Below, piece after piece: positions 30,797-48,192 of a stretch of DNA of 48,192 bases. The notes beneath the pieces are model-generated. The model did not search any database and was not told the DNA's origin. It saw only the letters and a program-made list of their open reading frames with translations. Source of the DNA: an uncultured bacterium. GTDB taxonomy: Bacteria > Patescibacteriota > Minisyncoccia > Phycocordibacterales > CAIZLB01. The stretch is from assembly GCA_903864515.1 (NCBI GenBank), contig CAIPFZ010000009.1, positions 1 through 48,192 of the forward strand, in the 5' to 3' direction. The translations under genes were made by a program, and so were the position numbers. Every line of letters begins with the position of its first letter. Position 1 is the first letter of the stretch.

Positions 30797-31534
30797 ATGC
30801 AAAACAACGAACAAACACAAAGTAGAATGTCATTGCAAACAATGATAATACCGATAGCAATAATAATTGCAGGAGGATTAATAGCTGGAGGAATATATAT
30901 GACCGGTACTTCACAGAAGGCAGGAACTGCCCCACTTGGCGCTCAAAAAGCCAATATAGTAGTTGAGCCGGTAACTACAGCCGATCACGTATTAGGAGAC
31001 CCTAAGACTGCAAAGGTTACAATTATTGAGTACTCAGATTTGGAATGTCCATTCTGTAAAACATATCATGAGACTCTTTCAAAAATTTACGATGAGAACA
31101 AAGCAAGTGGAAAACTAGCGTGGGTATTCAGACACGCTCCAATTGTTGAACTTCACAGTAAAGCTCCAAAGGAGGCAGAAGCAACTGAGTGCGCAGCTGA
31201 GCTTGGTGGTAACGCAGTATTTTGGAAGTATCTTTCAGAATTATTCGCAACTACACCAACAAACAATGGGCTTAATCAAGAGAAACTTTATGAGATTGCA
31301 AGTAACTCTGGTCTAGATTCAAAAGCATTTAAAAAATGTCTAGATAGTGGAAAATATGCTATGAAGATAAATGAACAAATTATGGCTTCAAAAAAGGCTG
31401 GCGTTGAAGGTACTCCATATGCAGTTCTTGTAATGGACGGAAAAAATGTTCCATTAGTTGATAAAGATGGAAACGGAATGGGTGCCCTACCATATCCTCA
31501 AATGAAACAAATAATTGATCAGTTGATTAAATAA
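30797..31534 (+). CDS. DsbA-family thiol:disulfide oxidoreductase, membrane-anchored
   Basis: N-terminal TM and thioredoxin-fold CPFC active site. Confidence 0.8.
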   Translation: MQNNEQTQSRMSLQTMIIPIAIIIAGGLIAGGIYMTGTSQKAGTAPLGAQKANIVVEPVTTADHVLGDPKTAKVTIIEYSDLECPFCKTYHETLSKIYDENKASGKLAWVFRHAPIVELHSKAPKEAEATECAAELGGNAVFWKYLSELFATTPTNNGLNQEKLYEIASNSGLDSKAFKKCLDSGKYAMKINEQIMASKKAGVEGTPYAVLVMDGKNVPLVDKDGNGMGALPYPQMKQIIDQLIK

Positions 31535-31684: not shown

Positions 31685-34600
31685 CTACCTCCTAATCGCC
31701 TTAATAAAATTATTAACATTCTCCTTAAACCACCAGAATGGCTCTTCAATTGATGTAATATTTCTATAATAACTATTATCTGTTCTATATAAGAAATCGC
31801 TAGATCTAACCTCCAACAACAGATTTCCAATTTTTAGCACGTGAACACTTCCACCCTTTGGAACAGCAACATCTACCTTAACAACATTATTTTTATCCTT
31901 TGAATATTTAACATTCTTTCCATTGAATGTAACAGCAACTTTTTTATCAATATGTCTTGCTGATACAGCCAGTACAGAATATGGATTAACATTTATTATT
32001 TGATACAAACCTCCCTTTGCATCAATTGATAGTTTTGTTGGAGTCTCTATACCATCGACAGAAACAAACAACAGATTAAGAGGCTGGAGAGTTTTAGTCT
32101 TTATAATTTGATTTAGAGTTGGAGTATTAATTGGACTATTCTCCATTGAATACAATGCAAATCCATTTATAATACCCGCGGAACTTAATTCTTTTTTAAT
32201 GGAAGGGACCGCTTCAGACAAATCAACCAACTCCTTAGGTAGTGAATCATTAAGGAATTTTTCTACATTATCCTTAATCCTAAATTTAGGCACCGTTTTA
32301 AATCCTATTGGACGAAGTCTTGCAAGTCCAGCAAGCGGATTAACAAAGCGAGAAATTCCAAAGTTTGCATCCGTGTCTCTTACAAGTTTCTCAAGATTTG
32401 ATAAATTCAAATTATTATTTAAACCATTATTTGTAATAGTACTACCGCTTGATCCAGCGCCAGCACTAGCTCCTGCATTATTGTTTGAATTACTTGGAGC
32501 AGAAGGTGTTGGGTTTGAAACCACAGGTGAATATGTACCTATAATACTTTGACCTATGTAACTTCCCCCAGAATGATTCTCACTTGGGCAACCTGTATTT
32601 GTTCCATTTCCAGCATTATTTATAATAGTTCCATACGAAGAGTTAATTGAAGATACTCCACCAGAATTTCCTCCTGGACCACAATATGTCGCTTGACCTC
32701 CTGTAGCCTGACTATTAGGAGCCGTACTTGTTGCAACAGAGTTGATAACCGTGATAGTTCCTCCGTCACCTCCACCAAGAGTTCCGTCTCCTCCACTGGC
32801 AGTAATATTTGCCGTTGTTGATGTGGATATATGAATATTACCTCCATCGCCTCCTATACCATTACTATTATCTGCCCCATCTGCAGATGTTGTTCCTGTA
32901 ACAGTCAGATTTGTAAGATTAAAGTCATACGCATCACCACCATCGTACGCACCATTACCAGATATAAATCCATCAATTTCATTACCTGAAACTCCATCGA
33001 TTGTAATATCATTTGATCCAATATAAATATCATTTCCAATATCATGCGCGATTGTAGTTGAAGAGAACAAGATTACAAAATCATCCCCAGCTGGAACAGA
33101 ACCTAGATTATCAGTGAGTGTTGCATCTTCAAACCAGTTTGCTGGATTATCCCACATTCCATCGCCAGTAGAATTAATAAATGATCTACCGTTTGGATAT
33201 GAGTGATATGTTATTGTACCAGTGACAATACCAGTAAGTGGTGCAACAACAAAACGATAAACATCAGCGTTACCTATTACAGTACCTGAGTTTACTGCAC
33301 GTCCATTGAAATATGTACGTCCCAAAATTGTTCCTGAATTAACACTTGTATCATTAAAGTATCCTATACCTTTAGTGTATCCAATGTTTGAACTTTGATC
33401 ATTAAATTTCCAAGTAGTAATTGTTGCCCCGACCCTGTCTTTAACTAATCCAAGAACTCGTCCAGTTCCCAAGAATGAAGTTGATGTAGAAAATGTTACC
33501 TTTCCATTTAGAGCTATGATATTATTTAATGTTAAATTACCAGTTGTTGTACCGCTACTGAATGATGAATCATTTGCTGTTGTGCTTCCATTTATTGTTC
33601 CACTATTGATTGAATAGTTGTTTAGGACAACATTTCCATTTATTACTCCATGATTAGTTGAACTAGCTCTCAAAACAGAATCTCCATTTATAATACCGTT
33701 ATTTAATGTATTTCCAGCAATTGAAATTCCTCCATGCATGACTCCGCTGTTACTAACATTTCCAACAAAATTAACACTACTTGTTGCAACAATTCCTGTT
33801 TGTTGAATCGTGATATTTGAAATAGATGCAGTACCATCACCCATGAGTAATCCTGCTATTGTTGTATCTCCAGTTATACTTGTTAAATCATTAACTGTGG
33901 TTGTTCCAGATGAAGTTACAGATCCAGATACTGTTGTACTTGCTATCGTAAATCCATATTGATTTCCTATTATATTTCCAGTTATAGCGTGCCCAGCTCC
34001 GTTTATAATAACGCCAGATCCTAAGATATTACAATTTTCAGCTATATCAGCTTCTAATGTATAAGTTCCAGCAAAATATAAATTACCACAATGACTTATT
34101 AGACCTGGAAAAACAGGTATTCCACCTTGAAGATATCTACTGGTCATTCCATCTCTTGGTATTAAATATTTATCAGAATTAAATACAAAACCTGTGTTTC
34201 CTTCATCGTTAAAAATTGTACTACTTGATACATTGATTGATGGACCAGTATTATTTAAATCTTTAATTCTTAAATAATTTAATGTCGATGTTCCATTTAT
34301 ACCAATTGACGCTTGTATTCCAGGAACAGTTGATTTAATTGTCAGTAAATTATCTGCATCATACCCTAGAAGTGTTGTTGATCCTGATATATTTAATACT
34401 GAACCTGATGTTAGAAATAGTGTATCTCTAATTGCAACAGCCACATTCTTTACTAGATTGATAACATTATTTACCCCATTCAATGTTTGACTCAAACCAT
34501 TAAGTGTTGCTGTTCCGTTTACAGTACCGATTGTAAACAACTTTGTATTATTAAACACAGCACTACCATTTATTATCCCGTTATTTGATGCACCATCATT

Positions 34601-37600
34601 AAACACAACGGAAAATGTATTTCCGATTGTTATTTCATTTGAAGATAAGTCATTAAATATTAAGTGAATAATATCAATTCCATCTCCTCCCTTGATTGTC
34701 CCACCGATTGAACCCGCCCATTTCATGGAGTTAGATAGATTAAATGTACCCGCTACAGCATCACTATAAATCACGTTACCTGTAATTATTCCGGAATTAT
34801 ATGCCCCACTATTGAATGTAGCATTTCCAATTATTTTTGTAGTATTATTTGTGGAATTTGAAAATATTACACCTGACGCATTTGCACCGGCAGTTAGACC
34901 CGTTGAATCAATAAATAACGGAAGCGTTGTTGTTGACCAACTTATGACAGGAGAAGTATTACCTACAAGAAATACTCCACTTGAACCAACAGGAAGGCTT
35001 CCTTTGTTGACTGAACATGACGCATCTGTAAACCAATTTGAAACATTACTCCAATTTGAGTCCGCCGTTCCACACCAATAATGAGGAGAGTATGTAAATG
35101 AACTTGTCTTCGTTGAAATTACACCTCCAGCATCAACTCCTTTTATTGATAGAGTAACGGAGCCTGATACTGCAGGGGGGATAATATCTGCTCCATCAAG
35201 TGCACAATCTGCAGTTGAAGTTGATACGAAGTTATCATATGAATAGTAACAAGAAGTGGCTGTAGACCAAGATATTATTGGTCTCCAGGCTGTTGTTGTA
35301 GATAAGTTTTGAGGAAGAAAAATGCTCGGGCTAATAACTAGTGGGTTTTTTACTAACACAAAGATATCTGGCCTAGCCACAGCAACAACCCTGTTTCCAT
35401 CAGCTGAGGAAGAAACACCTAAATATTCTCTGGTTGGATCAGAGGTGCTTTGTGCCCATGTTACACCGCCGTCTTCTGATGTGTAAATATGACCCGTGAA
35501 AACAGCAGCTGTAATTTTATTTCCGTCTGCAGACATTGTCAAATCTTTCCAAGATTTTAATCCGGCAGTTGATGTAGCCCATGTTACTCCACTATCTGAT
35601 GATAGATATATATAAGAACCTGCAATGGCAGCTAGTTTTGTTGCATCCGAAGATGCTGTAATATCAATCCAAGCCTTTGTACCGAGAGAAAGTGATCCTG
35701 TACTGGTTGCCCATGTTGCACCGCCGTCTGCTGACAAGTATATGTATCCACTATTTACTACACCTGCCGCCTTAAGACCGTTAGCTGATAGAGCAAAATC
35801 TCGCCAAGCCCTAATTGGAACACTGAGTTGAGAAGTCCATGTATTACCATAATCTTCTGATATGTATAAATAGCTATTATTTTTTGCAACAATCATTCTA
35901 GATCCATCTGCAGATGACGCAAGACCATACCAGCCTCCTGTACCTGAATTACTAGATTGAGTCCAGTTCAAACCAGAATCTGTTGAAAAGTAAATCTTAG
36001 TAACAATGTCTCCTTGGCTTGCAACAAGCTTTGTTCCATCAGCCGTTGATACAACATTCCAGCCGTAAGACGCCATTGGTGCATTGGTTCTAATCCAATT
36101 AATACCGCTATCAATTGATCTGTATATATAGCTCCCCCCAGTAAACATCTTGTCCCCGTCTATAGATACTGCAGTAGAATCTAGGTCAGCATCACTTACA
36201 CCACTCACCAGAGTCCACCCATTCAATATGTAATTGAATATTACACTTCCAATACTGACATTACTATTATCATCAGTAGATCTCAGCGATAAAGTAACAG
36301 AACCATTAGATGGAGGCAGGGAAATATCTGTTCCATTCATTGCACAATTTGCAGTTGAAGTCGACACCCAATTATTATATGAATATTGGCAATTTGTTTT
36401 TTTAAATCCCCACGTTATTGATGGTGACCATATCAAATTTGTAAGATATGAACTTGCAATAGGTCTATTGATTGTAATGTATGAATTTAAAAATTTATCA
36501 TTAGCATTAAGATCTAATATATACAAATGCTTATCATCATCAGACCTTGCGGCCAATATTTTTTTTCCATCACCTGACACTTCAATATTAAACCAGTCAC
36601 CTAACCCAGTTGATGAACGTGGCTCCCAATTATTTCCACCATCCTTTGATACATATATATAACCATCAAAAGTAGCAGCGGCAAGTGTCATTCCATCATC
36701 TGATGCCGAAACACTATACCATGCCCTGGCTACATCGTTCACACGTGAATTCCAAGTCACTCCACCATCTGTTGATACATATATAAAATTAGTACTCGCA
36801 ACGGCTACTAGCCTTGAACCATCTCCAGATGATGCGACAGCCTTCCAATCTTTATAACCCAAAGCAGTACTTGTTGCCCAATTTGCACCACCATCAGTTG
36901 ATATATATACATATCCTGTCTGACCAGATGTGTTTCCACTTGCAATCAACTTCATACCATCATTAGAAGAAGCTAGACCATACCAATATTTTGATCCCGC
37001 TGATGTACGTTGAACCCATGTTACACCACTATCTGTAGAGGTATAGATATAACCACCAAAAACTGAAGCAGCAAGATTTACACCATCGGAAGACGATGTA
37101 ACTCTAAACCAAGAACGTGTTGTAGTTCCACGAGGTACCCATGTAGCCCCACTATCTACTGAAGTATATATAAGACCATTGTTGCTAACTGCAGAAACTA
37201 ACTTAACACCATCATCAGAAGAGGCTGCTACAGCCCAAGATCTTTTAACATCAGAGGTACGCTGTACCCAAGAAGTACCACCATTACTTGATGTCCAAAT
37301 ATAATCATTGATCATATTTGCCAGTATTTTTGTACCATCATATGAAAGGGCAAAGCTGTCATAACCACTCCAACCTCTTAGACCTAATGCAGTGTTTTTA
37401 ACAAAACTATACAAGTAAGTAAAAGGAACATTTTTTATATTTACATTATTATTAGAATCAACTGTTCGTATATATAAAATATTTTGCCCATCATTTGATG
37501 GAGGTAGAATATCAGACCCCCCATTTAGACAGTTTACCGTCGAGGTCGATATAAAATTGTCATATGAATACTGACAAGTTACAAGACTTTCATTATTGAC

Positions 37601-40054
37601 ACTGTAATCGATATCTGGAAACCAAATTAGAGCCTCGTAACTTTTATTTAATTCAGGTAAATTAACTTGAATATTTTTATTACCATCATTTGTAAAATTA
37701 ACAGACTTAGTAATCACTTCTCTCATTGCACTTATTCCCTTTACATATAAAGTATAGTTTCCACTTTGTGGTGGTGGAATATCTGATCCACTCAGGGCAC
37801 AATTTGCAGTTGAGGTTGAGATGAAGTTGTCATATGAATAGTAACAATACTTTGATGTACCCCAGGAAATCACAGGATTCCAATCTATAACACTACTACT
37901 TGCGAATGGTGTAACAATGTCTACTGAATAAACTGATGGGAATTTTGAGCTGGTATAAATATAACCATTAAGCACTGCGGCTGCCATTCTATTACCATCA
38001 CCAGATGATGTTACACCAAACCAAACCCTGTTAGAATCTTGTGCTGTCCAGCTTACACCTGAATCTGTGGAAGTATATATCTTACCACTATTAACTACCG
38101 AGGTAAGTACGTTACCATTTATTGAAGATGTGACAGATCGCCAAGCCCTGTTTGCATCATTCACACGAGGAGTAAAATTCACACCCCCATCAATTGATGT
38201 ATACAAATAACCAGTACCAGCTGCAGCTACAACTTTTAATCCATCTGCAGATATTGCAATTGACTTCCAGTCTTTTGTTCCAAGTGCTAGAGAACCTGTA
38301 CTTGTTGCCCATGTATTCCCACCGTCAGTTGATCTATATATATACCCCGCACTACCAGTTCCAGCAAACATTACTCCACCGTCAGCGGAGACAGTAGTTG
38401 TAAGCCAACCCCTATTAGCGTCATTCATTCTAGATGTCCAAGTAACACCACCGTCTAATGACACGTAAAGATAATTGTTACTTGCGCTGGCTAAAATCTT
38501 TTTTCCGTCAGCAGACATCGCAATAGAATTCCAAGATTTTATTCCATCAGCAACGTATGTTGCCCACGTAAAACCACCATCCGTTGATACATATATATTT
38601 GTGTTTGAACCTAATGCTGCTACCTTTCTTCCATCAGCAGACATTGCGACAGACTCCCAAACTCTTGTGATATCAGAAGTGCGCTGTGTCCAAGTGACAC
38701 CACTGTCAATTGATCCATATATATAACCAGCGGAGGCAAGAGCGATTAATTTCACACCATCAACAGAAGACGCGATGGACTTCCATTGTCTAGATTCTGC
38801 AGACAATCTGGAAATCCAGACTTCACCAAATAGAGGATTTAATCTTAATCTCAAGCCAAAATCTAGGTTATTAACAATAAGAGAATTTATGTCTGCGGTA
38901 GTAGTTGCTGTACTTGTACCAGCAATTGAAACTGCATAACTAATGTTAAGCATTGATGTTGAAAAAGTAGTTGACGCCACAGTTAATGATTCAGCAGAAA
39001 TTAAAATATTAGGAGAATTTATTTTCTTACCAGTCAAATTTAGCGCACCTCCAGAGATAGTAATTGTTGAGGATGATTTTATAAGATTTGAAAAATTAAC
39101 TGCCGTAGTTGAAGCCAGAGTAAAATTTGAATAACCTGATGCATCGGTGAAGTAATTCAAGTTTGAAGTTGTAGCCGATGTAATAGAATACCCAGCACCA
39201 TCGAAAATAATATTATTAGATCCTGCAACAAAACAAGTTCCACTTACATTCGTAATATTTTGACTTAAAGTAAACAAACCAGATCCAAACAATGTACCAC
39301 AAGAAGAAACAGTGCCTGGAAAGATCGGCCAAGTTCCTCCAATATAAACTCCATAGTTTGTAGCATTATCATTAAAAAATGAAAGAGAACTCAAGGTGAC
39401 ATTTGTCTTATTTAGAGAGTTTGTGTAATTTAAATCCAATCCTCCATCTGTGTTTCTCCCTACCGTTCCAGTACCTGCAAGAGTAGATATGGTTGAACTT
39501 GATATATTTAAATCATAACTTGTTAGATCAATATTTCCTCCAATTCCTCCATATTGCTTGCTAGATGAATTTCCTCCAGCTGTTGTAATTCCACCAACAG
39601 AAGAATAGAAGACCGCAACATCTCCTCCATCTCCCCCATTGCCGTTATTTTCTCCCAAGCCTGTAACATCAGAATTTCCACTCAAATTAACACCGGTAGT
39701 GTACCCTGTTATTATTAATTCATTTATAATTAAATTAGTATATCCATTTGCACCTTCTGTAAGTGAACTGCTTGGACCACCATCTCTTTGACGAGCGTCA
39801 ATTGCAATAGACCCTGAACCTGATACTGTGTATCCCCCACCATTAATAATTACATTATCAGATGAAATATTGAAACACGTTGATGTTCCGTTTGAGACAC
39901 TTGAAGTCAAATTATACACCCCAGGAACCGCCAATTCTCCACATGTATTTATGTCCCCCGGAAGCAAAACATCAGCACTGGATATTTGCGGAGTTAGACA
40001 AAAGAAAAAAGTAAAAAATATCGCCATAGATATGATTATTTTTTGCTTGTTCAT
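31685..40054 (-). CDS. giant secreted surface protein (2,789 aa): beta-helix regions, three seven-bladed Asp-box (BNR-like) propellers, Cys-pair modules
   Basis: signal peptide MNKQKIIISMAIFFTFFFCLTPQISSA; 21 blades of pattern W.S.A.S.DG.K......IY.S.D.G.TW; four C.YSY(D/N)N(F/W).STST..C...G.DI..PP modules; long G/N/T-rich beta-helix-like stretches. Confidence 0.85.
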   Translation of the reverse strand: MNKQKIIISMAIFFTFFFCLTPQISSADVLLPGDINTCGELAVPGVYNLTSSVSNGTSTCFNISSDNVIINGGGYTVSGSGSIAIDARQRDGGPSSSLTEGANGYTNLIINELIITGYTTGVNLSGNSDVTGLGENNGNGGDGGDVAVFYSSVGGITTAGGNSSSKQYGGIGGNIDLTSYDLNISSSTISTLAGTGTVGRNTDGGLDLNYTNSLNKTNVTLSSLSFFNDNATNYGVYIGGTWPIFPGTVSSCGTLFGSGLFTLSQNITNVSGTCFVAGSNNIIFDGAGYSITSATTSNLNYFTDASGYSNFTLASTTAVNFSNLIKSSSTITISGGALNLTGKKINSPNILISAESLTVASTTFSTSMLNISYAVSIAGTSTATTTADINSLIVNNLDFGLRLRLNPLFGEVWISRLSAESRQWKSIASSVDGVKLIALASAGYIYGSIDSGVTWTQRTSDITRVWESVAMSADGRKVAALGSNTNIYVSTDGGFTWATYVADGIKSWNSIAMSADGKKILASASNNYLYVSLDGGVTWTSRMNDANRGWLTTTVSADGGVMFAGTGSAGYIYRSTDGGNTWATSTGSLALGTKDWKSIAISADGLKVVAAAGTGYLYTSIDGGVNFTPRVNDANRAWRSVTSSINGNVLTSVVNSGKIYTSTDSGVSWTAQDSNRVWFGVTSSGDGNRMAAAVLNGYIYTSSKFPSVYSVDIVTPFASSSVIDWNPVISWGTSKYCYYSYDNFISTSTANCALSGSDIPPPQSGNYTLYVKGISAMREVITKSVNFTNDGNKNIQVNLPELNKSYEALIWFPDIDYSVNNESLVTCQYSYDNFISTSTVNCLNGGSDILPPSNDGQNILYIRTVDSNNNVNIKNVPFTYLYSFVKNTALGLRGWSGYDSFALSYDGTKILANMINDYIWTSSNGGTSWVQRTSDVKRSWAVAASSDDGVKLVSAVSNNGLIYTSVDSGATWVPRGTTTRSWFRVTSSSDGVNLAASVFGGYIYTSTDSGVTWVQRTSAGSKYWYGLASSNDGMKLIASGNTSGQTGYVYISTDGGANWATSTALGYKDWKAVASSGDGSRLVAVASTNFIYVSTDGGVTWNSRVNDVARAWYSVSASDDGMTLAAATFDGYIYVSKDGGNNWEPRSSTGLGDWFNIEVSGDGKKILAARSDDDKHLYILDLNANDKFLNSYITINRPIASSYLTNLIWSPSITWGFKKTNCQYSYNNWVSTSTANCAMNGTDISLPPSNGSVTLSLRSTDDNSNVSIGSVIFNYILNGWTLVSGVSDADLDSTAVSIDGDKMFTGGSYIYRSIDSGINWIRTNAPMASYGWNVVSTADGTKLVASQGDIVTKIYFSTDSGLNWTQSSNSGTGGWYGLASSADGSRMIVAKNNSYLYISEDYGNTWTSQLSVPIRAWRDFALSANGLKAAGVVNSGYIYLSADGGATWATSTGSLSLGTKAWIDITASSDATKLAAIAGSYIYLSSDSGVTWATSTAGLKSWKDLTMSADGNKITAAVFTGHIYTSEDGGVTWAQSTSDPTREYLGVSSSADGNRVVAVARPDIFVLVKNPLVISPSIFLPQNLSTTTAWRPIISWSTATSCYYSYDNFVSTSTADCALDGADIIPPAVSGSVTLSIKGVDAGGVISTKTSSFTYSPHYWCGTADSNWSNVSNWFTDASCSVNKGSLPVGSSGVFLVGNTSPVISWSTTTLPLFIDSTGLTAGANASGVIFSNSTNNTTKIIGNATFNSGAYNSGIITGNVIYSDAVAGTFNLSNSMKWAGSIGGTIKGGDGIDIIHLIFNDLSSNEITIGNTFSVVFNDGASNNGIINGSAVFNNTKLFTIGTVNGTATLNGLSQTLNGVNNVINLVKNVAVAIRDTLFLTSGSVLNISGSTTLLGYDADNLLTIKSTVPGIQASIGINGTSTLNYLRIKDLNNTGPSINVSSSTIFNDEGNTGFVFNSDKYLIPRDGMTSRYLQGGIPVFPGLISHCGNLYFAGTYTLEADIAENCNILGSGVIINGAGHAITGNIIGNQYGFTIASTTVSGSVTSSGTTTVNDLTSITGDTTIAGLLMGDGTASISNITIQQTGIVATSSVNFVGNVSNSGVMHGGISIAGNTLNNGIINGDSVLRASSTNHGVINGNVVLNNYSINSGTINGSTTANDSSFSSGTTTGNLTLNNIIALNGKVTFSTSTSFLGTGRVLGLVKDRVGATITTWKFNDQSSNIGYTKGIGYFNDTSVNSGTILGRTYFNGRAVNSGTVIGNADVYRFVVAPLTGIVTGTITYHSYPNGRSFINSTGDGMWDNPANWFEDATLTDNLGSVPAGDDFVILFSSTTIAHDIGNDIYIGSNDITIDGVSGNEIDGFISGNGAYDGGDAYDFNLTNLTVTGTTSADGADNSNGIGGDGGNIHISTSTTANITASGGDGTLGGGDGGTITVINSVATSTAPNSQATGGQATYCGPGGNSGGVSSINSSYGTIINNAGNGTNTGCPSENHSGGSYIGQSIIGTYSPVVSNPTPSAPSNSNNNAGASAGAGSSGSTITNNGLNNNLNLSNLEKLVRDTDANFGISRFVNPLAGLARLRPIGFKTVPKFRIKDNVEKFLNDSLPKELVDLSEAVPSIKKELSSAGIINGFALYSMENSPINTPTLNQIIKTKTLQPLNLLFVSVDGIETPTKLSIDAKGGLYQIINVNPYSVLAVSARHIDKKVAVTFNGKNVKYSKDKNNVVKVDVAVPKGGSVHVLKIGNLLLEVRSSDFLYRTDNSYYRNITSIEEPFWWFKENVNNFIKAIRR
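35354..36184 (-). repeat. propeller 3 coding segment (aa ~1291-1567, 7 blades)
   Basis: SIDSGINW, STDSGLNW, SEDYGNTW, SADGGATW, SSDSGVTW, SEDGGVTW, plus a closing blade. Confidence 0.7.
36512..37372 (-). repeat. propeller 2 coding segment (aa ~895-1181, 7 blades)
   Basis: SSNGGTSW, SVDSGATW, STDSGVTW, STDGGANW, STDGGVTW, SKDGGNNW, plus a closing blade. Confidence 0.7.
37946..38785 (-). repeat. propeller 1 coding segment (aa ~424-703, 7 Asp-box blades)
   Basis: blades end in SIDSGVTW, STDGGFTW, SLDGGVTW, STDGGNTW, SIDGGVNF, STDSGVSW, plus a closing blade. Confidence 0.7.
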
Positions 40055-41129: not shown

Positions 41130-41963
41130 ATGGATCAAAAAAATACGAATGAAAATAATGTTGGAAAAAATATGGAAATTAGAAAAATAAGAAATGATGT
41201 CAATTACAAACGTGAAAGATTAGTTAGAGTAATTGTACAAATGAGAGACGGTAGAACGTCAACAGGAACTGGTTTTTTTATTAGCGAAGATGGGGAAATT
41301 TTAACATGCGCGCATGTTATTTCAGGAACGGAACTTAGAAATCTTAAGGCAATTGATTATAAAGTTGGACCAAATGCAGGGGTCAATATTGTTAATACAA
41401 ATAGTATAGAACAAGCTAATAATGTGGACCAAATAGAACATGCAAAATTCCTAAATTATCTTACGCAATCCATAATGAGCCTTCAAATTGAACTCTCAAA
41501 TGGAGAAAGAGCTATGGCTGAAATAAAAAAGATTGATGAAGAGTTTGATGTGGCGCTGATAAAAATCGTAAAAAATGAAGGGTTAGGCGTTAATGGAAAC
41601 GGAAAAGAAACACCGTTCTTTTTATTAGACGATGAATACATTCCAGAGTATGATGAATCAACTTTCTTCTGTGGTTTTCAAATGACTGGTGGATATGAGA
41701 ATCCAACTCAATATCCTTTTTCAATTAATAGAGCAGTAGTTTCTGCCATACCTTTGGTTGCTGTTGCCGGTGGAAGATACGAACATATTCAATTAAATTC
41801 TATTAATCTTGGCGGAAATAGTGGCGCTCCATTATTTATTGAAGGAAGTAATACAGTGATTGGAATGATAAATGGAAATATGAATTGGCTTACAAATATT
41901 CCGCTTTGTATTGCATATGCAACATCTTTGAAATTAATTAAAGAGAAGACGGATATTTTATAG
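41130..41963 (+). CDS. trypsin-like (S1-fold) serine protease, no signal peptide seen
   Basis: catalytic contexts TCAHV (His), DVALIKI (Asp) and GGNSGAPLF (Ser). Confidence 0.75.
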   Translation: MDQKNTNENNVGKNMEIRKIRNDVNYKRERLVRVIVQMRDGRTSTGTGFFISEDGEILTCAHVISGTELRNLKAIDYKVGPNAGVNIVNTNSIEQANNVDQIEHAKFLNYLTQSIMSLQIELSNGERAMAEIKKIDEEFDVALIKIVKNEGLGVNGNGKETPFFLLDDEYIPEYDESTFFCGFQMTGGYENPTQYPFSINRAVVSAIPLVAVAGGRYEHIQLNSINLGGNSGAPLFIEGSNTVIGMINGNMNWLTNIPLCIAYATSLKLIKEKTDIL

Positions 41964-42375: not shown

Positions 42376-42721
42376 TGTATTACTCTGTTGTTGGTTGTTC
42401 TAAACAGCAGTCTAGTTTGTTTGACTGCATCTTTCAAGGTATGTATTTGATGTCACTTAATCATAATTAAAGCGATTCAAAAGCGTAAATACCCTTAAAG
42501 ATACAGTCAAGACCAAAAGAAAATAACTCTTCTGCAACATAAGTAACAGTCTTATTAATGAACTAAATCTGTAAAACTATACAGTAAAGTTGGGAAAAGT
42601 AAAGGGGTGTTTTTGAATTAAAATTTTCCCCAACATTATCCCCATCCCCCACTTTTTCTGCAGATTTTACACATGATGAAAATGGTTTAATATTATTATT
42701 ATCAATTTAATATATAAACAA

Positions 42722-43399
42722 ATGAAGATACTAATTATAGAAGATGATATTTTTTTAGCACAGACAATCAAAAGGGCACTTCAAGCTTACTGCTTTAATG
42801 TTGATACTGCGCATGATGGAAAAAGCGGATCCTACATTGCAAGAATTAATAGATATGATTTGATATTATTAGATTTAATCTTACCAGACAAAAGTGGAGT
42901 TTCAGTTTGCAGAGAAATTAGAGCGGAGGGAATAAAATGTCCAATACTTATTGTATCATCGCAATCTGAGGTGCCAGATAAGGTTACAATGCTCAATGCC
43001 GGTGCAGATGATTATATTACCAAGCCATTTAATATGGAGGAGCTTGTAGCAAGAGTAAATGCGTTAATCAGAAGGCCGTATGATATATTAGAGGAGGTAA
43101 TGACATTAAATGATTTAACAATAGATACTAATACTCAAACTGTTACCAAATCTGGTGAGAATGTTTATCTAACAAGAAGAGAATATATGTTGCTAAATTG
43201 CTTTGCGAGGAATGAGGGCAGGATTCTCACAAGAGGAAGGATTCTTGAGGAAGTATGGGAAAGGGATGCAAGTCCGATGACCAATACAATAGAGACGCAT
43301 GTTAGAAATTTAAGGAAGAAGATTGAGACGGATGATAAGAGGATTATTTATACGGTGAATGGGCGGGGGTATAGGATGAGTACAAAGAAAGGTGTATAG
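42722..43399 (+). CDS. OmpR/PhoB-family response regulator
   Basis: receiver with DLILLDLILPDKSG and KPF; winged-helix output LTRREYMLL...TIETHVRNLRKK...VNGRGY. Confidence 0.9.
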   Translation: MKILIIEDDIFLAQTIKRALQAYCFNVDTAHDGKSGSYIARINRYDLILLDLILPDKSGVSVCREIRAEGIKCPILIVSSQSEVPDKVTMLNAGADDYITKPFNMEELVARVNALIRRPYDILEEVMTLNDLTIDTNTQTVTKSGENVYLTRREYMLLNCFARNEGRILTRGRILEEVWERDASPMTNTIETHVRNLRKKIETDDKRIIYTVNGRGYRMSTKKGV

Positions 43400-43507
43400 A
43401 CTGGCAAGTGTGAGTTTTTGTGGAAGTTGTTAACCAATGGTCAGTGATGTATTCCGAAAAAATTCGGGGATTCTTTATAAAATATTTATGGAAATATAAT
43501 GTCTAGA

Positions 43508-43516
43508 TGATAGAAT
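43508..43516 (+). promoter_or_regulatory. extended -10 promoter box (TGATAGAAT) inside the RR-HK spacer
   Basis: ~7 nt upstream of hairpin 43524..43543; would give the kinase gene its own ~120-nt leader. Confidence 0.35.
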
Positions 43517-43644
43517 GATGCATGGAATACTGTCGAGTATTCCCAATTGTTCAAATTTTTGTATTCTGGTTCTTAGGTTTTAAATGTTAGATTCTATAAG
43601 TCACAATAGAGTCTAACAACTTACAACTTAAAACAGCAAAAGAG

Positions 43645-45045
43645 ATGTATGCAATCAAAAAACAATCATTCTTCCAAACAAATAAGAGTGAAAATTTAAA
43701 AAGGAAAAAATGCATACTGATTATGCTATGCTTTAGTATGACATCTTTTTTATCACTACTGCTAATTCTTTTAACGTATTCCTTATATATAAATGGAATA
43801 AAATATACGGGGATGTCATTTTGGATTTTACTTTTATTTACATTAACAAGTTTCTTTTCACTGTTACTTTCTCACAAAGATAAATTATTATCTAGTACTA
43901 TAATCATATTCTCATTAATCTATATTTGTATATTTTATGGATCTATCAGCTGGGGAGCTGACTTGCCTACAATACTAATAGCTCTATTTGTAACTGTTTT
44001 AATGTCAGGGATACTGATAAACTCAAGAACTGGACTACTCACAGCCGTGATATTATCTGTTCACATATTCATTTTTTATTACCTTGCCTCCCATCAAATC
44101 ATAACCCCAAACCATTCTTGGAAAAACGACACCTTCAATCTCCTTGATGTCATAGAATACTCCTCCCTCCTCATCTTCGCCGCCCTCTTCTCCTGGCTCT
44201 CCAACAGCCAACTGGAGAAAACCCTTATAAAATATAAAGAATCTGAGGCTCTTCTCCAACATGAAAAAGAGAATCTGGAAATAAAAGTCAAAGAAAGAAC
44301 AGAAGAAATCAAAGCTCTCCAAATTGAAAAAATAAACTCCATGTACCGTCTGGTAGAATTTGGAAGAATATCCTCCGGCCTATTTCATGACATAATGAGT
44401 CCCCTAACAAACATCACTCTAAATTTACAAATGCTTAAAATTGACGAGGTGAAGGAGGAAATAAAGAACTTGACCCCATCGATCAAAAAAATAGATAATT
44501 TAATTACTCAATCAAGAAAGCATATCAAAATTGATAACACTTACACACATTTTGATGTAGGCGAGGAGATTACGTCTGTAATGGAGATACTAAAATCCAA
44601 GGCAATTAGTAATGGAGTGAAATTAATATTCCCAATCAAAAACTTAAGCGCAAGATTATATGGCTCCCAAACTCTCTTCTCTCACATCATTATGAACCTC
44701 CTATCAAATGGAATTGATGCATACAGCACAGAATCAAAAACAAAAAATAAATTAGTAATAATTAAAATAAAGCGATCAATTCAAGACTCCTCCACACTAT
44801 ATATAAAAGTATCAGACAATGGCGAAGGCATCTCGCCAGAATTAATTAAAAACATCTTTGAACCTTTTTTTACAACAAAACAAGAGCGAGGGTGTGGTAT
44901 TGGATTATCATCGACAAAACACATTTTGGAAAAATATTTTAATGGCTCAATTAGCGTGAGAAGTATGTTGGGAAAAGGAACTACTTTTACAATGTCAATT
45001 CCCCTGTCAATAATTGAACGTAAGACAACCCACAGTAACTCTTGA
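43645..45045 (+). CDS. membrane sensor histidine kinase
   Basis: about 5-6 N-terminal TM segments, coiled coil, H-box GLFHDIMSPL, N-box LLSNGIDAY, G1 DNGEGI, G2 GCGIGLS; ends in tandem TGA TGA. Confidence 0.85.
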   Translation: MYAIKKQSFFQTNKSENLKRKKCILIMLCFSMTSFLSLLLILLTYSLYINGIKYTGMSFWILLLFTLTSFFSLLLSHKDKLLSSTIIIFSLIYICIFYGSISWGADLPTILIALFVTVLMSGILINSRTGLLTAVILSVHIFIFYYLASHQIITPNHSWKNDTFNLLDVIEYSSLLIFAALFSWLSNSQLEKTLIKYKESEALLQHEKENLEIKVKERTEEIKALQIEKINSMYRLVEFGRISSGLFHDIMSPLTNITLNLQMLKIDEVKEEIKNLTPSIKKIDNLITQSRKHIKIDNTYTHFDVGEEITSVMEILKSKAISNGVKLIFPIKNLSARLYGSQTLFSHIIMNLLSNGIDAYSTESKTKNKLVIIKIKRSIQDSSTLYIKVSDNGEGISPELIKNIFEPFFTTKQERGCGIGLSSTKHILEKYFNGSISVRSMLGKGTTFTMSIPLSIIERKTTHSNS

Positions 45046-45075
45046 TGAAAACAAAATAGCACGGTAAATCTATAT

Positions 45076-45104
45076 TTGTATAGCCCCCAAAATCATGCTA
45101 TCCT
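45076..45104 (+). promoter_or_regulatory. -35/-10 promoter TTGTAT-N17-TATCCT (TG at extended -10 position)
   Basis: homologous to 46293..46321 and 46990..47018. Confidence 0.4.
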
Positions 45105-45184
45105 TTTCCTCGGACCAGGAAACCTATTGAAATATCCAAGGTCAATCCCCAATCAAAACACCCAAACCCCAGAAATACTAGATT

Positions 45185-45664
45185 ATGTCAGAACCAAAAG
45201 CAGTGCTCATGCTATATGCATGCAGCTATCCTGAAAATGCGGATCATGTCCTTACAAGACTATCTGAAGAACCCGATCTTCTCAGCACCAAATGCAAAGA
45301 CGCCTTCACCTTCTTAACTCACTGCAATGCCGGTAGTGACGCCTTTGAATTTGACGTCGTCGTCATTAACGGCCGTGTACACGCCGGTAGTAGCGTAAAG
45401 GACCAAATTCAAATTGACGACGGTGACGTGGTTAATGAATTAAACTTGTGGGGTTGTCTTCGGATTAAACATACCAAAACCCCAGTTGTCGCGATTGTCT
45501 CACTTGGAGAGACTTTCAAAAAAATGGATCGAATACAAGACCCCGCCCTTGACATGAAGTACCGTATGGATACGAGCCCTGAGCAAGTAGATGAATCCAT
45601 AATCTTCACCCTTGAGAAATTTTTTCCCAAAAGATTCACTCGAAGGGACAGTTGTGGAAGCTAA
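45185..45664 (+). CDS. receiver-like (pseudo-receiver) orphan protein, paralog 1
   Basis: VLMLYA..., FDVVVINGRVHAGS (Asn at the expected phospho-Asp site), PVVAIVSLG, LEKFFP; paralogous to 46385.. and 47089.. Confidence 0.35.
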   Translation: MSEPKAVLMLYACSYPENADHVLTRLSEEPDLLSTKCKDAFTFLTHCNAGSDAFEFDVVVINGRVHAGSSVKDQIQIDDGDVVNELNLWGCLRIKHTKTPVVAIVSLGETFKKMDRIQDPALDMKYRMDTSPEQVDESIIFTLEKFFPKRFTRRDSCGS

Positions 45665-45752
45665 TACCTGCCAGCCAACCAAAAGGCTTGAGGTATTCAA
45701 TTCGCAGTCACACACAAACCGCCACACACCAACCTCGCATGAAAAACAGAGA

Positions 45753-45800
45753 AGCCTCGCCTAACGGCATCTTCTCAACGTTTTCAGGTGAGGCTTTTCT
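45753..45800 (+). terminator. long-loop hairpin after paralog 1
   Basis: AGCCTCGCC ... GGTGAGGCT followed by TTTCTAT. Confidence 0.35.
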
Positions 45801-45811
45801 ATATATAAAAA

Positions 45812-45855
45812 CGACGCCGGCAGACTGTAGCCTGCGCGGCGTTTTTTTTGTTTTT
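45812..45855. terminator. bidirectional terminator
   Basis: CGACGCCGGCAG / CTGCGCGGCG stem followed by TTTTTTTTGTTTTT; serves convergent genes 45185.. and 45877.. Confidence 0.7.
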
Positions 45856-45876
45856 GATTCCTTGTAAAATCAGCCT

Positions 45877-46164
45877 CTAACACAACGGTCTGTTGCGCAG
45901 ACGACAAATGCCTACAATCAAGCCGATAATGGCAGCGATGGCAAATAACACAACGGTCATCAAATTACTGATTGCCAGTTTGTATTGTCCGATAATGCAA
46001 CCCAGAGGGCAAAGTACAAAAACAACGGACATAAACAGAAAGATTGGCAGTCCCAAACTACCGTCCTCCTCGCCAAGACTAAATGCAAATCGATTAGAAA
46101 GATTTGCAGTCAAGACTAGTAGTAACGCAAAAATAACATAAAAGATACATTCGTAATAATTCAT
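45877..46164 (-). CDS. small membrane protein (95 aa, ~3 TM)
   Basis: ATG 46164 (MNYYECIFYVIF...), hydrophobic throughout. Confidence 0.45.
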   Translation of the reverse strand: MNYYECIFYVIFALLLVLTANLSNRFAFSLGEEDGSLGLPIFLFMSVVFVLCPLGCIIGQYKLAISNLMTVVLFAIAAIIGLIVGICRLRNRPLC

Positions 46165-46292
46165 TTCAGTAACACTTTGGAGGTTTAGCAATTGATCCCC
46201 TGCAATCTAATCCCCAGCACCTGCCGAAGACTTAAATTACATAACATTTTGAAGGACCAAAACAGACCATACAATACATCATAATCCCCTAT

Positions 46293-46321
46293 TTGTACAG
46301 TTTTCAAAAGCATGATAATCT
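46293..46321 (+). promoter_or_regulatory. -35/-10 promoter TTGTAC-N17-TAATCT (TGa extended -10)
   Basis: followed by the conserved CTTGGACTAGA box. Confidence 0.45.
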
Positions 46322-46384
46322 TGTTCTTGGACTAGAGAATTTCCAATACAGTCTACAACCCCAACCCTAGAAATACCTGAAATT

Positions 46385-46879
46385 ATGAAACCGGAAAGTA
46401 AAAAACCCTTTATCGTATTCGCTTACACTGATGAGCGTTACTATTTAGAGGAGACCATCAGAAGACTAAAAGAAGACCCAAACATTAAGGTGGTCTTCTG
46501 CAGAAACGCGAGTGAAATCATGTTCAATACCACCGCAGACACAGCAAGGCCAGATATCATTATCACCGACGCGAGCCTTCATCAAGGAGACCAACTCGAA
46601 TACGGTGACGCCATTCCAGTGGTGGCTTTGTATGAGATGATTCGAAAGACTAAACCACCTATTATCCCCATTGTGTTTTATAGCACCCGCATGATGGGCA
46701 TGATACACATCATGCGCGATGCATCTGGCGATTCAAACCTCATGATCATCAAAGCGGAAGAGTCAGCGGAGAAATCTATGGCAAAGGATGTATTTGACGC
46801 GATAGAGTACTTCTGCCCTACCGCCAAAGAAGATCCTTTTTCATTATCCAAGCCCTTTCCTGACGGATGGGAAGGATAG
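46385..46879 (+). CDS. single-domain receiver-like protein, paralog 2
   Basis: FIVFAYTDE, PDIIITDASLHQGD, IPIVFYST and LMIIKAEE fit the acidic pocket / Asp / Thr-Ser / Lys order of CheY-like receivers. Confidence 0.4.
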   Translation: MKPESKKPFIVFAYTDERYYLEETIRRLKEDPNIKVVFCRNASEIMFNTTADTARPDIIITDASLHQGDQLEYGDAIPVVALYEMIRKTKPPIIPIVFYSTRMMGMIHIMRDASGDSNLMIIKAEESAEKSMAKDVFDAIEYFCPTAKEDPFSLSKPFPDGWEG

Positions 46880-46908
46880 GAGAGAATTTTCTCCAGGAGT
46901 CCTCCCCT

Positions 46909-46964
46909 GCCCCGATTCAAACCAAAGAAGCTCCGCTTCTCGTTTGAATCGGGGCTTCTTTATT
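46909..46964 (+). terminator. long-stem terminator
   Basis: GCCCCGATTCAAAC ... GTTTGAATCGGGGC (14 bp) followed by TTCTTTATT. Confidence 0.6.
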
Positions 46965-46989
46965 CCATTATCTTTTCCTAAAAAAACTA

Positions 46990-47018
46990 TTGTACAGTTT
47001 TATAAATCGTGATAATCT
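46990..47018 (+). promoter_or_regulatory. -35/-10 promoter TTGTAC-N17-TAATCT (TGa extended -10)
   Basis: near-identical to 46293..46321, followed by CTTGGACTAGA. Confidence 0.45.
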
Positions 47019-47088
47019 CTTTCTTGGACTAGAAATCTATTGAAATGTCCGAGTCACAATCAAAACACAGCACAGAAAGACAATAACC

Positions 47089-47577
47089 ATGAACAACGCA
47101 AGAATTCCCGCCATGCTATTTGCACACAATGCTACACCGTACTCAGACTTAGCCCTTGCGGTATTGAATGCAAGGAACGATCTGTTTGTAGCAACCTGCA
47201 ATAACGCAAGAAGTGCGCTCCACTGCATTGATAGCAACAAAGAAAATGGACCAGATATCATCATCGTCACAAATCAACTGCATCACGGCGATGAATTGTC
47301 CCCCGATGTTACCAACAACAGACAACGTACTGGTGAAGCAATATACGCCAGAGTACGTATGATTCCTGGTCATGAAAGTACACCGGTCATCATCGTTACA
47401 ATGCGTAGTGAGGAAATTCATCACCTAGAAAACCTCAACGACCCAAATTTGACAGCTATCCTTGCTGACACATTTGCGATCGATACCGCAATCACAGGTA
47501 CAATACAGAGATTCTTCCCCAACTGGGGTGAACCACTTATTCCCTGTGAGGAGGTGGTGTTGGATACCGCTACGTGA
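47089..47577 (+). CDS. receiver-like (pseudo-receiver) orphan protein, paralog 3
   Basis: AMLFAHN, PDIIIVTNQLHHGD (Asn at the expected phospho-Asp site), PVIIVTMRS, IQRFFP. Confidence 0.35.
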   Translation: MNNARIPAMLFAHNATPYSDLALAVLNARNDLFVATCNNARSALHCIDSNKENGPDIIIVTNQLHHGDELSPDVTNNRQRTGEAIYARVRMIPGHESTPVIIVTMRSEEIHHLENLNDPNLTAILADTFAIDTAITGTIQRFFPNWGEPLIPCEEVVLDTAT

Positions 47578-47607
47578 AGAATTGTTCAAAATCAGTAAAC
47601 CAATATA

Positions 47608-47668
47608 CCTCGCTTGAATAAATGACGCCTTTATGGTTTTTGTTTATTTCAAGCGAGGCTTTGTTTTA
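47608..47668 (+). terminator. long-stem terminator
   Basis: CCTCGCTTGAATAAA ... TTTATTTCAAGCGAGG followed by CTTTGTTTTAT. Confidence 0.6.
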
Positions 47669-47725: not shown

Positions 47726-48192
47726 ATGAATTTAAAATATTTTAAACATGATATTTCAAGAAATAAAAAAGTGATTGAGTATAAAAAAGCTTTTACATTA
47801 ATTGAAATACTTGTAGTTGTTGCGATCATCTCTCTAATATCGGCACTGGTTGTAAATAGTCTATCAGAAGCAAAAATGAAGGGTAATGATGAGAAGATTG
47901 CACAAGACTTAAGTCAGTTTAGAACTGCTGTTGATATGTATTTTAATGATAATCAGGAGTACCCTGTAAACCCTGCATTATCTACAAATCATAAGGACTC
48001 CAAGACAGCAAATGGAGGTACAGATTTCTGGGGTAATAAACTGGCATTCTTCACAAAGAAAGCGAGTGCTGCCGTCAATCACACTATAAGTCCACTTTGT
48101 GCAAACTTTGATAATATATCTGCATTATTGGTTCAAAGAAAATATCTATCAGCAATTCCTGTTCACCCATATGACAATGACGCACAAGGTAT
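47726..48192 (+). CDS. type IV prepilin (partial, runs off the window end)
   Basis: not in the ORF track (no stop in window); hand translation MNLKYFKHDISRNKKVIEYKKA|FTLIEILVVVAIISLI... shows a prepilin cleavage/methylation motif; open to the last base. Confidence 0.75.
   Translation, partial: MNLKYFKHDISRNKKVIEYKKAFTLIEILVVVAIISLISALVVNSLSEAKMKGNDEKIAQDLSQFRTAVDMYFNDNQEYPVNPALSTNHKDSKTANGGTDFWGNKLAFFTKKASAAVNHTISPLCANFDNISALLVQRKYLSAIPVHPYDNDAQG

Follow-up and report, generated by a model that had tools for sequence, protein, structure and literature searches.

Three divergent receiver-like genes with a conserved promoter module behind a regulator-kinase pair of an uncultured patescibacterium: predicted accessory partners of the kinase

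The stretch of 48,192 nucleotides (nt) analyzed here, contig CAIPFZ010000009.1 of an uncultured bacterium of the Patescibacteriota (assembly GCA_903864515.1) and called the window or W, carries three small plus-strand genes directly behind the genes for a response regulator and a membrane histidine kinase. The open reading frames (ORFs) at positions 45185..45664 (copy 1, 159 amino acids [aa]), 46385..46879 (copy 2, 164 aa), and 47089..47577 (copy 3, 162 aa) are present exactly as an earlier note on this DNA had given them. With a probability of about 0.55, sequence and structure predictions favor accessory single-domain receivers of the adjacent kinase, expressed as co-regulated, separately terminated units, with copy 2 as a possible acceptor and copies 1 and 3 as binders or modulators. 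These would be lineage-specific and fast-evolving proteins of the receiver fold, tied genetically to the upstream OmpR-type regulator/kinase pair and acting as partners of the kinase through protein-protein contacts. Copy 2 could take phosphoryl groups from the kinase and serve as a competing branch or phosphate sink, and copies 1 and 3 would act without phosphorylation, for instance, by binding the kinase or another partner.

By sequence comparison, the three copies are true, distant paralogs. Their global identity is 21 to 23%, and blastp aligned copies 1 and 3 with 24% identity over 156 aa (E = 2e-10), copies 1 and 2 with 24% over 86 aa (E = 5e-8), and copies 2 and 3 with 28% over 69 aa (E = 2e-5). 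With a family-wide profile, exactly these three ORFs and no other in the window were matched. The divergent paralogy proposed in the earlier note is hereby supported. The blocks of residues it had listed as common to the copies do not follow the order of the ORFs, the first being from copy 2, the second from copy 3, and the third from copy 1. The designation “orphan” has to be dropped, because an exhaustive HMMER scan of the three-paralog profile against 1.84 billion representative proteins (E ≤ 1e-3) yielded 21 proteins, comprising the window's own three, one repeat artefact (P0010), and 17 other credible clusters. As judged from these searches, the family is very rare and hitherto undescribed. 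Word-indexed protein searches with copy 2, the three-paralog profile, and a 20-member family profile returned essentially the window proteins and P0005 alone, which is the closest relative of copy 3 (36% identity) and the product of unit 4 of L008; labels of this kind designate contigs of related metagenomic lineages carrying family members. ORF length and fold are retained across the lineages. Family features are an insertion of 12 to 13 residues after beta3, in the beta3-alpha3 loop, with the consensus RLxHGDEFSxxETxxGxxTG, and a C-terminal FFP motif. No model in Pfam or NCBIfam matched the receiver-like proteins above threshold.

The suggestion of a CheY-like receiver fold was borne out by structure models and profile searches. 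The AlphaFold model of copy 2, with a predicted local distance difference test score (pLDDT) of 84 and a predicted template modeling score (pTM) of 0.80, shows a clean (beta-alpha)5 arrangement with the elements E-H-E-H-E-H-E-H-E-H, and that of copy 1 (pLDDT, 88.8; pTM, 0.85) shows the same arrangement plus an extra small beta-hairpin in the beta3-alpha3 insertion. When both models were compared with the PDB by Foldseek, the top 50 matches were almost all response-regulator receiver domains, with target-normalized TM-scores of up to 0.75 for stand-alone receiver domains and the AdeR receiver as the best match of copy 1 (E = 2.6e-6). The 20-member family profile, compared with solved structures, likewise found essentially receiver domains only (best match 6ont, E = 1.5e-7). 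The program hhalign aligned the family to the receiver domain of the OmpR-type regulator encoded in the window with a probability of 90% (E = 1.5e-6), and weak PF00072 matches were present in 13 of the 20 family members. Because profile matches and structure models agree, the receiver fold can be considered established as well as prediction allows; the models cover copies 1 and 2, and for copy 3 we infer the fold from the family alignment. All three copies possess one receiver domain and no output domain, no second Pfam domain being found in their 159 to 164 aa, and the models of copies 1 and 2 consist of the (beta-alpha)5 core and a short low-confidence tail only.

Pseudo-receivers are common, and how they work is largely obscure. 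A pseudo-receiver (PsR) is a domain of the receiver fold that lacks at least one of the five active-site residues (PMC12632262, PMC4395418), and the mechanisms of PsR activation were called a mystery in a review of 2025 (PMC12632262). The active-site quintet DD, D, T/S, and K, as defined in PMC12632262, was read from the family alignments and from hhalign. Four of the five residues are present in copy 2, which has T15-D16 at the acidic pair, D62 at the end of the modeled beta3, the Ser of Y-S-T, and the Lys of I-I-K; D16, D62, and the Ser were mapped by hhalign to the regulator receiver and the Lys was taken from the family alignments. Copy 1 has none (C-S, N62 as the last residue of the modeled beta3, V, and Y), and copy 3 has, by alignment, one (H-N, T61, T, and L). 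A complete quintet is thus found in none of the three. In the family as a whole, most members have both the acceptor Asp and the second residue of the acidic pair, and only a few, which are copy 2, P0004, P0006, and P0012, have the Lys in addition. Since the acceptor Asp is replaced by Asn or Thr, copies 1 and 3 are, on the alignments, aspartate-less pseudo-receivers, or aspartate-less receivers (ALR), and copy 2 with its D62 is not. The earlier note had placed an Asn at the acceptor position of both outer copies, which is correct for N62 of copy 1 but not for copy 3, where the position is Thr61 and the Asn follows one residue later; its division into one Asp-bearing and two pseudo-receiver copies stands. 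Because the Asp and most of the pocket are lost, copies 1 and 3 would be restricted to actions that do not require phosphorylation.

In comparison with known PsR and ALR proteins, the (beta-alpha)5 fold is alike and all three copies fall under the PsR definition, with copies 1 and 3 as ALR. They differ from them as stand-alone proteins of about 160 aa that score below the Pfam receiver threshold, by the beta3-alpha3 insertion and the FFP motif of their own, and by the tandem arrangement of Asp-bearing and Asp-less copies; moreover, these proteins were found only in a rare uncultivated lineage. CheY-type sinks, DivK, and Spo0F are single-domain regulators that serve as extra branches or phosphate sinks. 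MrrA is a single-domain response regulator, too (PMC5964349). The copies resemble these four in having one receiver and no output domain and in being located beside a kinase gene, in L032 within its operon, and copy 2 retains the Asp/Ser/Lys triad. In contrast to these regulators, two of the three copies should be unphosphorylatable, the divergence is extreme, and phosphotransfer is a prediction.

The position directly downstream of the histidine kinase/response regulator pair is conserved. The regulator gene (42722..43399, plus strand) encodes an OmpR/PhoB-type protein with a receiver (PF00072, E = 2.6e-27) and a winged-helix domain (PF00486, E = 1.5e-24); it is the head gene of the conserved locus and its product is 80 to 95% identical to the regulators heading the loci of L008, L010, and L014. 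The kinase (43645..45045, plus strand) has a C-terminal HATPase_c domain (E = 4.4e-23), a weak HisKA match (E = 0.005), and a hydrophobic N-terminal half, which is by eye multi-pass; no extracellular sensor, receiver, or Hpt domain was detected in it by domain search. Regulator and kinase genes are followed by four receiver-like copies in L008, by one copy in L010, where the pilin gene known from the window comes next, by two copies in L014, and in L032/L033 by one copy that begins 18 nt past the kinase stop codon and thus inside the operon. L038 carries the kinase gene and one copy. The family is therefore located directly behind the same kinase in six lineages (W, L008, L010, L014, L032/L033, and L038), with three distant members elsewhere, and the copy number varies from one to four among related lineages. 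L036 has two copies followed by a gene for a DsbA-like protein, which also follows in L008, L014, and L032.

Each copy is preceded by a promoter and a box, as had been claimed. The module TTGTAY-N14-TGnTAWYCT-N4-CTYGGACYAG, searched as TTGTAYAG-N6-AAANCNTGNTAWYCT-NN-TYCTYGGACYAG, occurs three times in the 48 kb, at 45076, 46293, and 46990, and in 0 of 100 shuffled sequences. All three occurrences contain an extended −10 promoter of the sigma-70 type (TGnTAnnnT with TTGTAY 17 nt upstream) and a (T)TGGACTAG box at about the predicted position +1. The module of copy 1 (45076..45120, plus strand) begins 31 nt past the kinase stop codon and is composed of the −35 motif TTGTAT (45076-45081), the extended −10 motif TGcTATCCT (45096-45104), and the box CTCGGACCAGGA (45109-45120). 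Those of copy 2 (46293..46336, plus strand) and copy 3 (46990..47033, plus strand) share TTGTAC (46293-46298 and 46990-46995), TGaTAATCT (46313-46321 and 47010-47018), and CTTGGACTAGA (46326-46336 and 47023-47033), and the count of 38 identical positions out of 44 between them was reproduced from the pattern matches. Each gene would be its own transcription unit, consisting of extended −10 promoter, box at about +1, leader, and intrinsic terminator, and the copies would be switched together because their promoter-plus-box cores are nearly identical. A DNA-pattern scan for the module gave three chance matches only in the GTDB species genomes (Acetobacterium and Alteromonas), contigs identical to L008 plus chance matches and nothing else in the JGI metagenomes, and no module in viral contigs, where single-protein scans did not find relatives either. 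The lineage must therefore be rare in these collections. In L014 (about 7900-7950) and L032 (about 5940-5990), the kinase gene as called includes, in its 3′ end, the extended −10 motif and GGACTAG box that belong to the first receiver-like gene; this may be either an internal promoter in coding sequence or an over-extended gene call.

The leaders of the three genes are unusual for this genome, albeit not in the respect first noticed. TGnTAnnnT is the promoter type before most window genes, and in most window ORFs of at least 120 aa it is located 6 to 10 nt before the ATG with no Shine-Dalgarno pairing, as upstream of 4941-6050(−), 13967-14386(−), 30797-31534(+), 31685-40054(−), 41130-41963(+), and 47726-48190(+). 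Because of the short distance between the −10 box and the start and the missing Shine-Dalgarno sequence, leaderless mRNAs are apparently the rule here, and the exceptions with a leader appear to be the receiver-like genes and, probably, that for the kinase. The Shine-Dalgarno sequence is indeed missing from the leaders, as had been noted, but since this is true for nearly every window gene, it is nothing special. The window leaders are 63 to 80 nt long as counted from the −10 box, G-poor, and CA-rich; that of copy 1 (45105..45184, plus strand) has 80 nt with 69% A+C, 11% G, and no Shine-Dalgarno sequence. When 19 leaders across the family were compared with dinucleotide shuffles, the first approximately 42 nt folded better than the shuffles (mean z, −0.98; t test, P = 0.003, with the relatedness among copies ignored), and the last 35 nt plus AUG were unstructured (mean minimum free energy [MFE], −0.35 kcal/mol; 70% A+C). 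Past the first 20 nt, the leaders contain 42% A, 28% C, and 12% G. Stem-loops at the 5′ end, as in ompA, stabilize mRNA, and unstructured A/C-rich leaders serve Shine-Dalgarno-independent initiation. Like the ompA type, the leaders have a hairpin-prone segment of about 40 nt that starts at the predicted +1; the tract between this segment and the AUG is unstructured and poor in G and might permit such initiation here. They differ from the ompA type in that not only the pairing potential of the box but also its sequence is conserved, the hairpin statistics are modest, and the host is mostly leaderless. Rfam gave no match at gathering score in the window, and none of the chance-level matches at E ≤ 5 lies in a leader; these sub-threshold matches overlay terminators (one reaching the copy 3 promoter), the membrane ORF described below, and the coding sequence (CDS) of copy 2.

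GGAC(U) of the box is able to pair with a downstream (A/G)GUCC in several copies, and distant lineages have a hairpin at the same place with other sequences, which are GGAA/UUCC, UAGGA/UCCUA, and UGAGAAG/CUUCUCA. The box may thus form the 5′ half of a stem-loop kept in the leaders; among the tests made for it, significance was reached only by the energy z score pooled over the 19 leaders. A candidate mini-ORF within the box, start-Asp-stop (TTG/ATG/GTG GAC TAG/TAA), was judged coincidental; a start codon exists in 9 of 15 copies only, and since the likely start of transcription falls within the TGGACTAG box, the mini-ORF is probably just a side effect of that sequence. Such mini-ORF-like boxes are found in the window (46328-46336 and 47025-47033), in L010 (about 3834), and in L008 (about 10015).

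Upstream of the regulator gene, at 42624-42644, a direct repeat TTTTCCCCAACA / TTATCCCCA is located about 40 to 60 nt 5′ of a TGgTTTAAT box. W and L008 have kept both copies of the repeat and L014 the second one, and L010 has a single similar copy. Sequence and position make the repeat a candidate site through which the OmpR-type regulator would control its own gene.

The module might alternatively be mainly a set of DNA operators, e.g., for the adjacent OmpR-type regulator, rather than a promoter with a 5′ RNA element, and the paralogs would then form a feed-forward or feedback regulon of the two-component system, which would be compatible with accessory receivers. The position of the box at about +1 is a classic operator position, sequence is conserved beyond structure in the box and in the spacer between −35 and −10 (TTTTnAAAAGCnTG), the upstream region of the kinase gene is built similarly, and a half-site like the regulator-gene repeat abuts the −35 motif of copy 2 and of the L010 unit. 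However, this type of repeat is found neither at copies 1 and 3 nor at any of the four L008 units, and its 16 occurrences in the window are scattered as expected by chance. Moreover, L031, L036, and L037 have a changed box sequence and the hairpin nevertheless stays in place, with GGAC/GTCC becoming GGAA/TTCC and the spacing of the arms varying from 16 to 20 nt, which fits an RNA better than a fixed operator. An operator set as the main role of the module is consequently held to be unlikely.

The long-stem terminators claimed for the three units were confirmed, with a stable hairpin and a U-rich tail after each of the copies (z scores of −6.4, −7.9, and −6.4). Two hairpins follow copy 1 at 45748-45800 and 45805-45851 (plus strand; MFE, −49.5 kcal/mol; z, −6.4), and the latter looks like a bidirectional terminator common to copy 1 and a convergent membrane ORF, because an A run and a U run flank the hairpin. 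The intrinsic terminator of copy 2 (46909..46954, plus strand; MFE, −36.1 kcal/mol; z, −7.9) is a long stem followed by CUUCUUUAUU, and that of copy 3 (47608..47658, plus strand; MFE, −24.4 kcal/mol; z, −6.4) is followed by a U run. The sequence type of the copy 1 terminator recurs after units 1 and 2 of L008, and that of the copy 2 terminator after unit 3 of L008 and unit 1 of L014. Terminator sequences, loops included, are conserved between genomes and units, with up to 93% identity over 124 nt within L008, as seen at 45748-45851 and 46909-46954 in the window, at 7000-7120, 8180-8300, and 9385-9445 in L008, and at 8560-8620 in L014. This conservation exceeds the needs of termination and could come from gene conversion or from a function of the 3′ untranslated region.

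Regulatory DNA is better conserved than the proteins it serves, as the earlier note had concluded within the window, and in related genomes the core was seen in L008, L010, L014, L019, L018, and L032. Between W and L008, the regulator is 95% identical with a nonsynonymous divergence (dN) of 0.03 and a synonymous divergence (dS) of 0.65, and the kinase is 73 to 77% identical with a dN of 0.16 and a dS of 0.88; between W and L010 as well as W and L014, the synonymous sites of the neighbor genes are saturated. The receiver-like proteins share between genomes 17 to 39% identity (mean, 25%), and their CDSs, with about 51% identity at the DNA level, are in effect saturated. For the pairs that come closest to orthologs, namely copy 1 and unit 2 of L008, copy 3 and unit 4 of L008, and copy 2 and the L010 copy, dN is 0.54 to 0.74. 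The proportion of nonsynonymous differences (pN, 0.38 to 0.52) is below that of synonymous differences (pS, 0.63 to 0.85), which, together with the retained ORF length and fold, speaks for real genes. A dN/dS test for positive selection is uninterpretable, the synonymous sites being saturated or the alignments too poor. The 55-nt promoter-plus-box core is 71 to 87% identical between genomes, and the modules of copy 2 and L010 are 86 to 87% identical despite saturated synonymous sites; the far-upstream intergenic region is 52 to 63% and the leader 24 to 59% identical between genomes. Among units 1 to 3 of L008, the far-upstream region is 86 to 89% identical, and the proteins of the same units 17 to 32%. 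Promoter cores group by genome, all L008 units having TGgTAGGCT and window copies 2 and 3 TGaTAATCT. The proteins group by type, with the copy-1-like type (N at the D site, FTRR tail) first and the copy-3-like type (FAHN, AILAxT) last in both W and L008. This same order implies that the types were kept since before the split of the two lineages. Since the core is conserved across genomes, the flanks are homogenized within a genome, and the proteins group by type, selection and concerted evolution should have acted jointly. On these alignments, the 55-nt core is preserved across genomes by selection, as had been proposed for the non-coding module, but part of the similarity within the genome looks like concerted evolution, most simply core-seeded gene conversion that stops at the diverged CDS.

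These rates need to be considered also under the assumption that the outer copies or all three are decaying, functionless duplicates and that their promoters are alike only because the non-coding segments were recently duplicated or subject to gene conversion. The catalytic residues are gone in copies 1 and 3, the proteins change at a near-neutral rate, and non-coding identity within the genome (86 to 89% for L008 units 1 to 3) exceeds that between genomes (52 to 63%), which points to conversion. L009 differs from L008 in receiver-like unit 2 by TAT to TAA (L009 about 2225-2230 versus L008 about 7928), a premature stop, and such a nonsense allele would also agree with decay. Nevertheless, every lineage has intact frames of constant length, confidence in the structure models is high, W and L008 have kept the copy types in one order from a time before they split, pN is below pS, and the promoter core is conserved between genomes with saturated synonymous sites. 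Decay is hence a very improbable explanation.

The description of the locus as three genes was correct but had missed a fourth ORF, which is located at 45877..46164 on the minus strand and paired divergently with copy 2. It encodes a hydrophobic protein of 95 aa with, by eye, three membrane helices and a basic C terminus, for which no match was obtained in Pfam, NCBIfam, or PADLOC. Hydrophobic ORFs of 92 to 110 aa are similarly placed 5′ of family members in L010, L008 (all four units), and L031 (both units); those of L010 and L008 unit 3 are alike by eye, and the likeness of the others is one of position, size, and hydrophobicity. The membrane ORF and the promoter of copy 2 are separated by a divergent intergenic region (46165..46292), in which the minus-strand gene presumably has its promoter and leader. 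This region is 55 to 63% identical to its counterparts in L010 and L008, and these are 86 to 89% identical among L008 units 1 to 3. A small plus-strand ORF (MIPAIL...) that is preceded by a GGAGG in this type of region was rejected as a gene, its frame not being conserved in W or L010. MgrB, SafA, and LiaF are examples of small membrane proteins that modulate sensor kinases. A hydrophobic ORF of 92 to 110 aa beside a kinase apparently without extracellular sensor domain is reminiscent of them, whereas sequence similarity is missing and the divergent pairing with a receiver-fold gene in a repeated cassette is different; that the membrane protein might interact with the kinase is pure conjecture.

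Cassettes of a membrane protein and a receiver-fold protein might also be arms-race or specificity modules under diversifying selection, e.g., with phage-related, immunity-like, or partner-discriminating functions; the receiver fold would then serve as a scaffold only and the adjacency to the kinase would be incidental or secondary. The dN of 0.54 to 0.74 is near neutral when compared with a dS of 0.65 to 0.9 for neighbor genes, the copy number changes from one to four between close relatives, a nonsense allele occurs in a sister population, the divergent membrane partners evolve equally fast, and the flanks are conserved and homogenized within a genome while the CDSs diverge. Base composition would also agree. 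The contrast reported earlier was reproduced, the three receiver-like CDSs having a GC content of 45 to 46% versus 33 to 36% for the kinase and regulator genes, and the GC content at third codon positions (GC3) is 0.44 to 0.52 in these CDSs, 0.25 to 0.34 in the regulator, kinase, and pilin neighbors, and 0.23 to 0.27 in the enolase and iPGM genes; GC and GC3 are above those of the host genes in every lineage. On the other hand, a PADLOC search at E ≤ 1 matched none of the components (three copies, two relatives, the membrane ORF, and the kinase), the viral contigs scanned contained neither relatives nor modules, no toxin-like or enzymatic domain is present, and the saturated alignments preclude a test for positive selection. 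In six lineages, the family is found at one fixed place of the chromosome downstream of the same kinase gene, in one of them even inside the operon. An arms-race role can thus be given only a small chance.

Accessory receivers of the adjacent kinase remain the preferred explanation, which has to be weighed against a number of opposing results. The finding as a whole is built from predictions. Copy 2 attains 13.9 bits against PF00072, where the gathering cutoff is 30.2 bits, and copies 1 and 3 are not matched at all. Copy 2, too, is strictly a pseudo-receiver (PMC12632262) because its first acidic residue is missing, and it is uncertain, although it may be the case, that this protein is phosphorylatable. 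As none of the three reaches the Pfam threshold or has the complete quintet, they are filed as an insertion-bearing variant of the receiver superfamily and not as canonical CheY-like regulators. The more distant members L018, L034, and L039 have no adjoining two-component system. Amino acid divergence of the receiver-like proteins is 18-fold that of the regulator and 3- to 5-fold that of the kinase, and the nonsense allele is the only single-nucleotide polymorphism in 4865 aligned nt of L008 and L009; both are compatible with weak constraint. The leader statistics ignored relatedness, and in a box-anchored complementarity test no single receiver-like leader was significant (P = 0.13 to 0.98). 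Control by the adjacent regulator via the TTATCCCCA repeat is unsupported, the repeat being inconsistent at the modules and scattered through the window.

The intergenic region between the regulator and kinase genes (43400-43644; compare L008 4106-4480 and L014 6288-6600) contains three hairpins and has, from its sequence, the appearance of a structured RNA region. The hairpin at 43452-43469 is terminator-like, the GGAATACTGTCGAGTATTCC hairpin at 43524-43543 covaries in L008 (GGAACGCT...AGCGTTCC), and the hairpin at 43587-43616, with 11 to 14 bp, is located just 5′ of the kinase gene and has arms of wholly different sequence in L008 and L014 (P ≤ 0.002 each). The window is a chromosomal segment of an AT-rich bacterium, which from context would be an uncultivated one with a small genome, of the CPR/Patescibacteria type, and it also carries genes for enolase, iPGM, TruB, DnaX, DHDPS, and type IV pili. 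A gene for a BNR/sortilin-type repeat protein of 2789 aa at 31685-40054(−) breaks the synteny with L014, where the gene for the DsbA-like protein precedes shorter genes.

Each ingredient of the locus is individually familiar, and the finding is not categorically new. As far as the literature and databases checked show, the tandem mix of Asp-bearing and Asp-less copies, the private near-identical promoters, the divergent membrane partners, and the mosaic of conserved flanks and saturated CDSs have not been described so far. In a more far-reaching version, which is speculative and rather improbable as judged from the sequences, the locus would be a diversifying array of accessory cassettes for the two-component system, in which units of a small membrane protein and an atypical receiver, each having a promoter and terminators to itself, are duplicated, lost, and recombined between conserved non-coding flanks homogenized by gene conversion. 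If so, each strain would have different kinase-binding decoys or adaptors and membrane co-sensors, the array would be a signaling analogue of hypervariable specificity loci, and the (T)TGGACTAG box with the 5′ leader would be a new common cis-element that switches the whole set.

If the proteins were weakly constrained leftovers, the finding would be ordinary. As it stands, one Asp-bearing and two Asp-less receivers with the same promoter design form a natural series at one kinase, with one to four copies in sister lineages, and the effect of an Asp-less stand-alone receiver on a neighboring kinase becomes testable with three small proteins and one kinase. The locus is also a clear case of regulatory DNA, the 55-nt core, outlasting the coding sequence that it drives, in a genome of otherwise leaderless mRNAs, and may be used to learn how leadered genes are expressed in such organisms.

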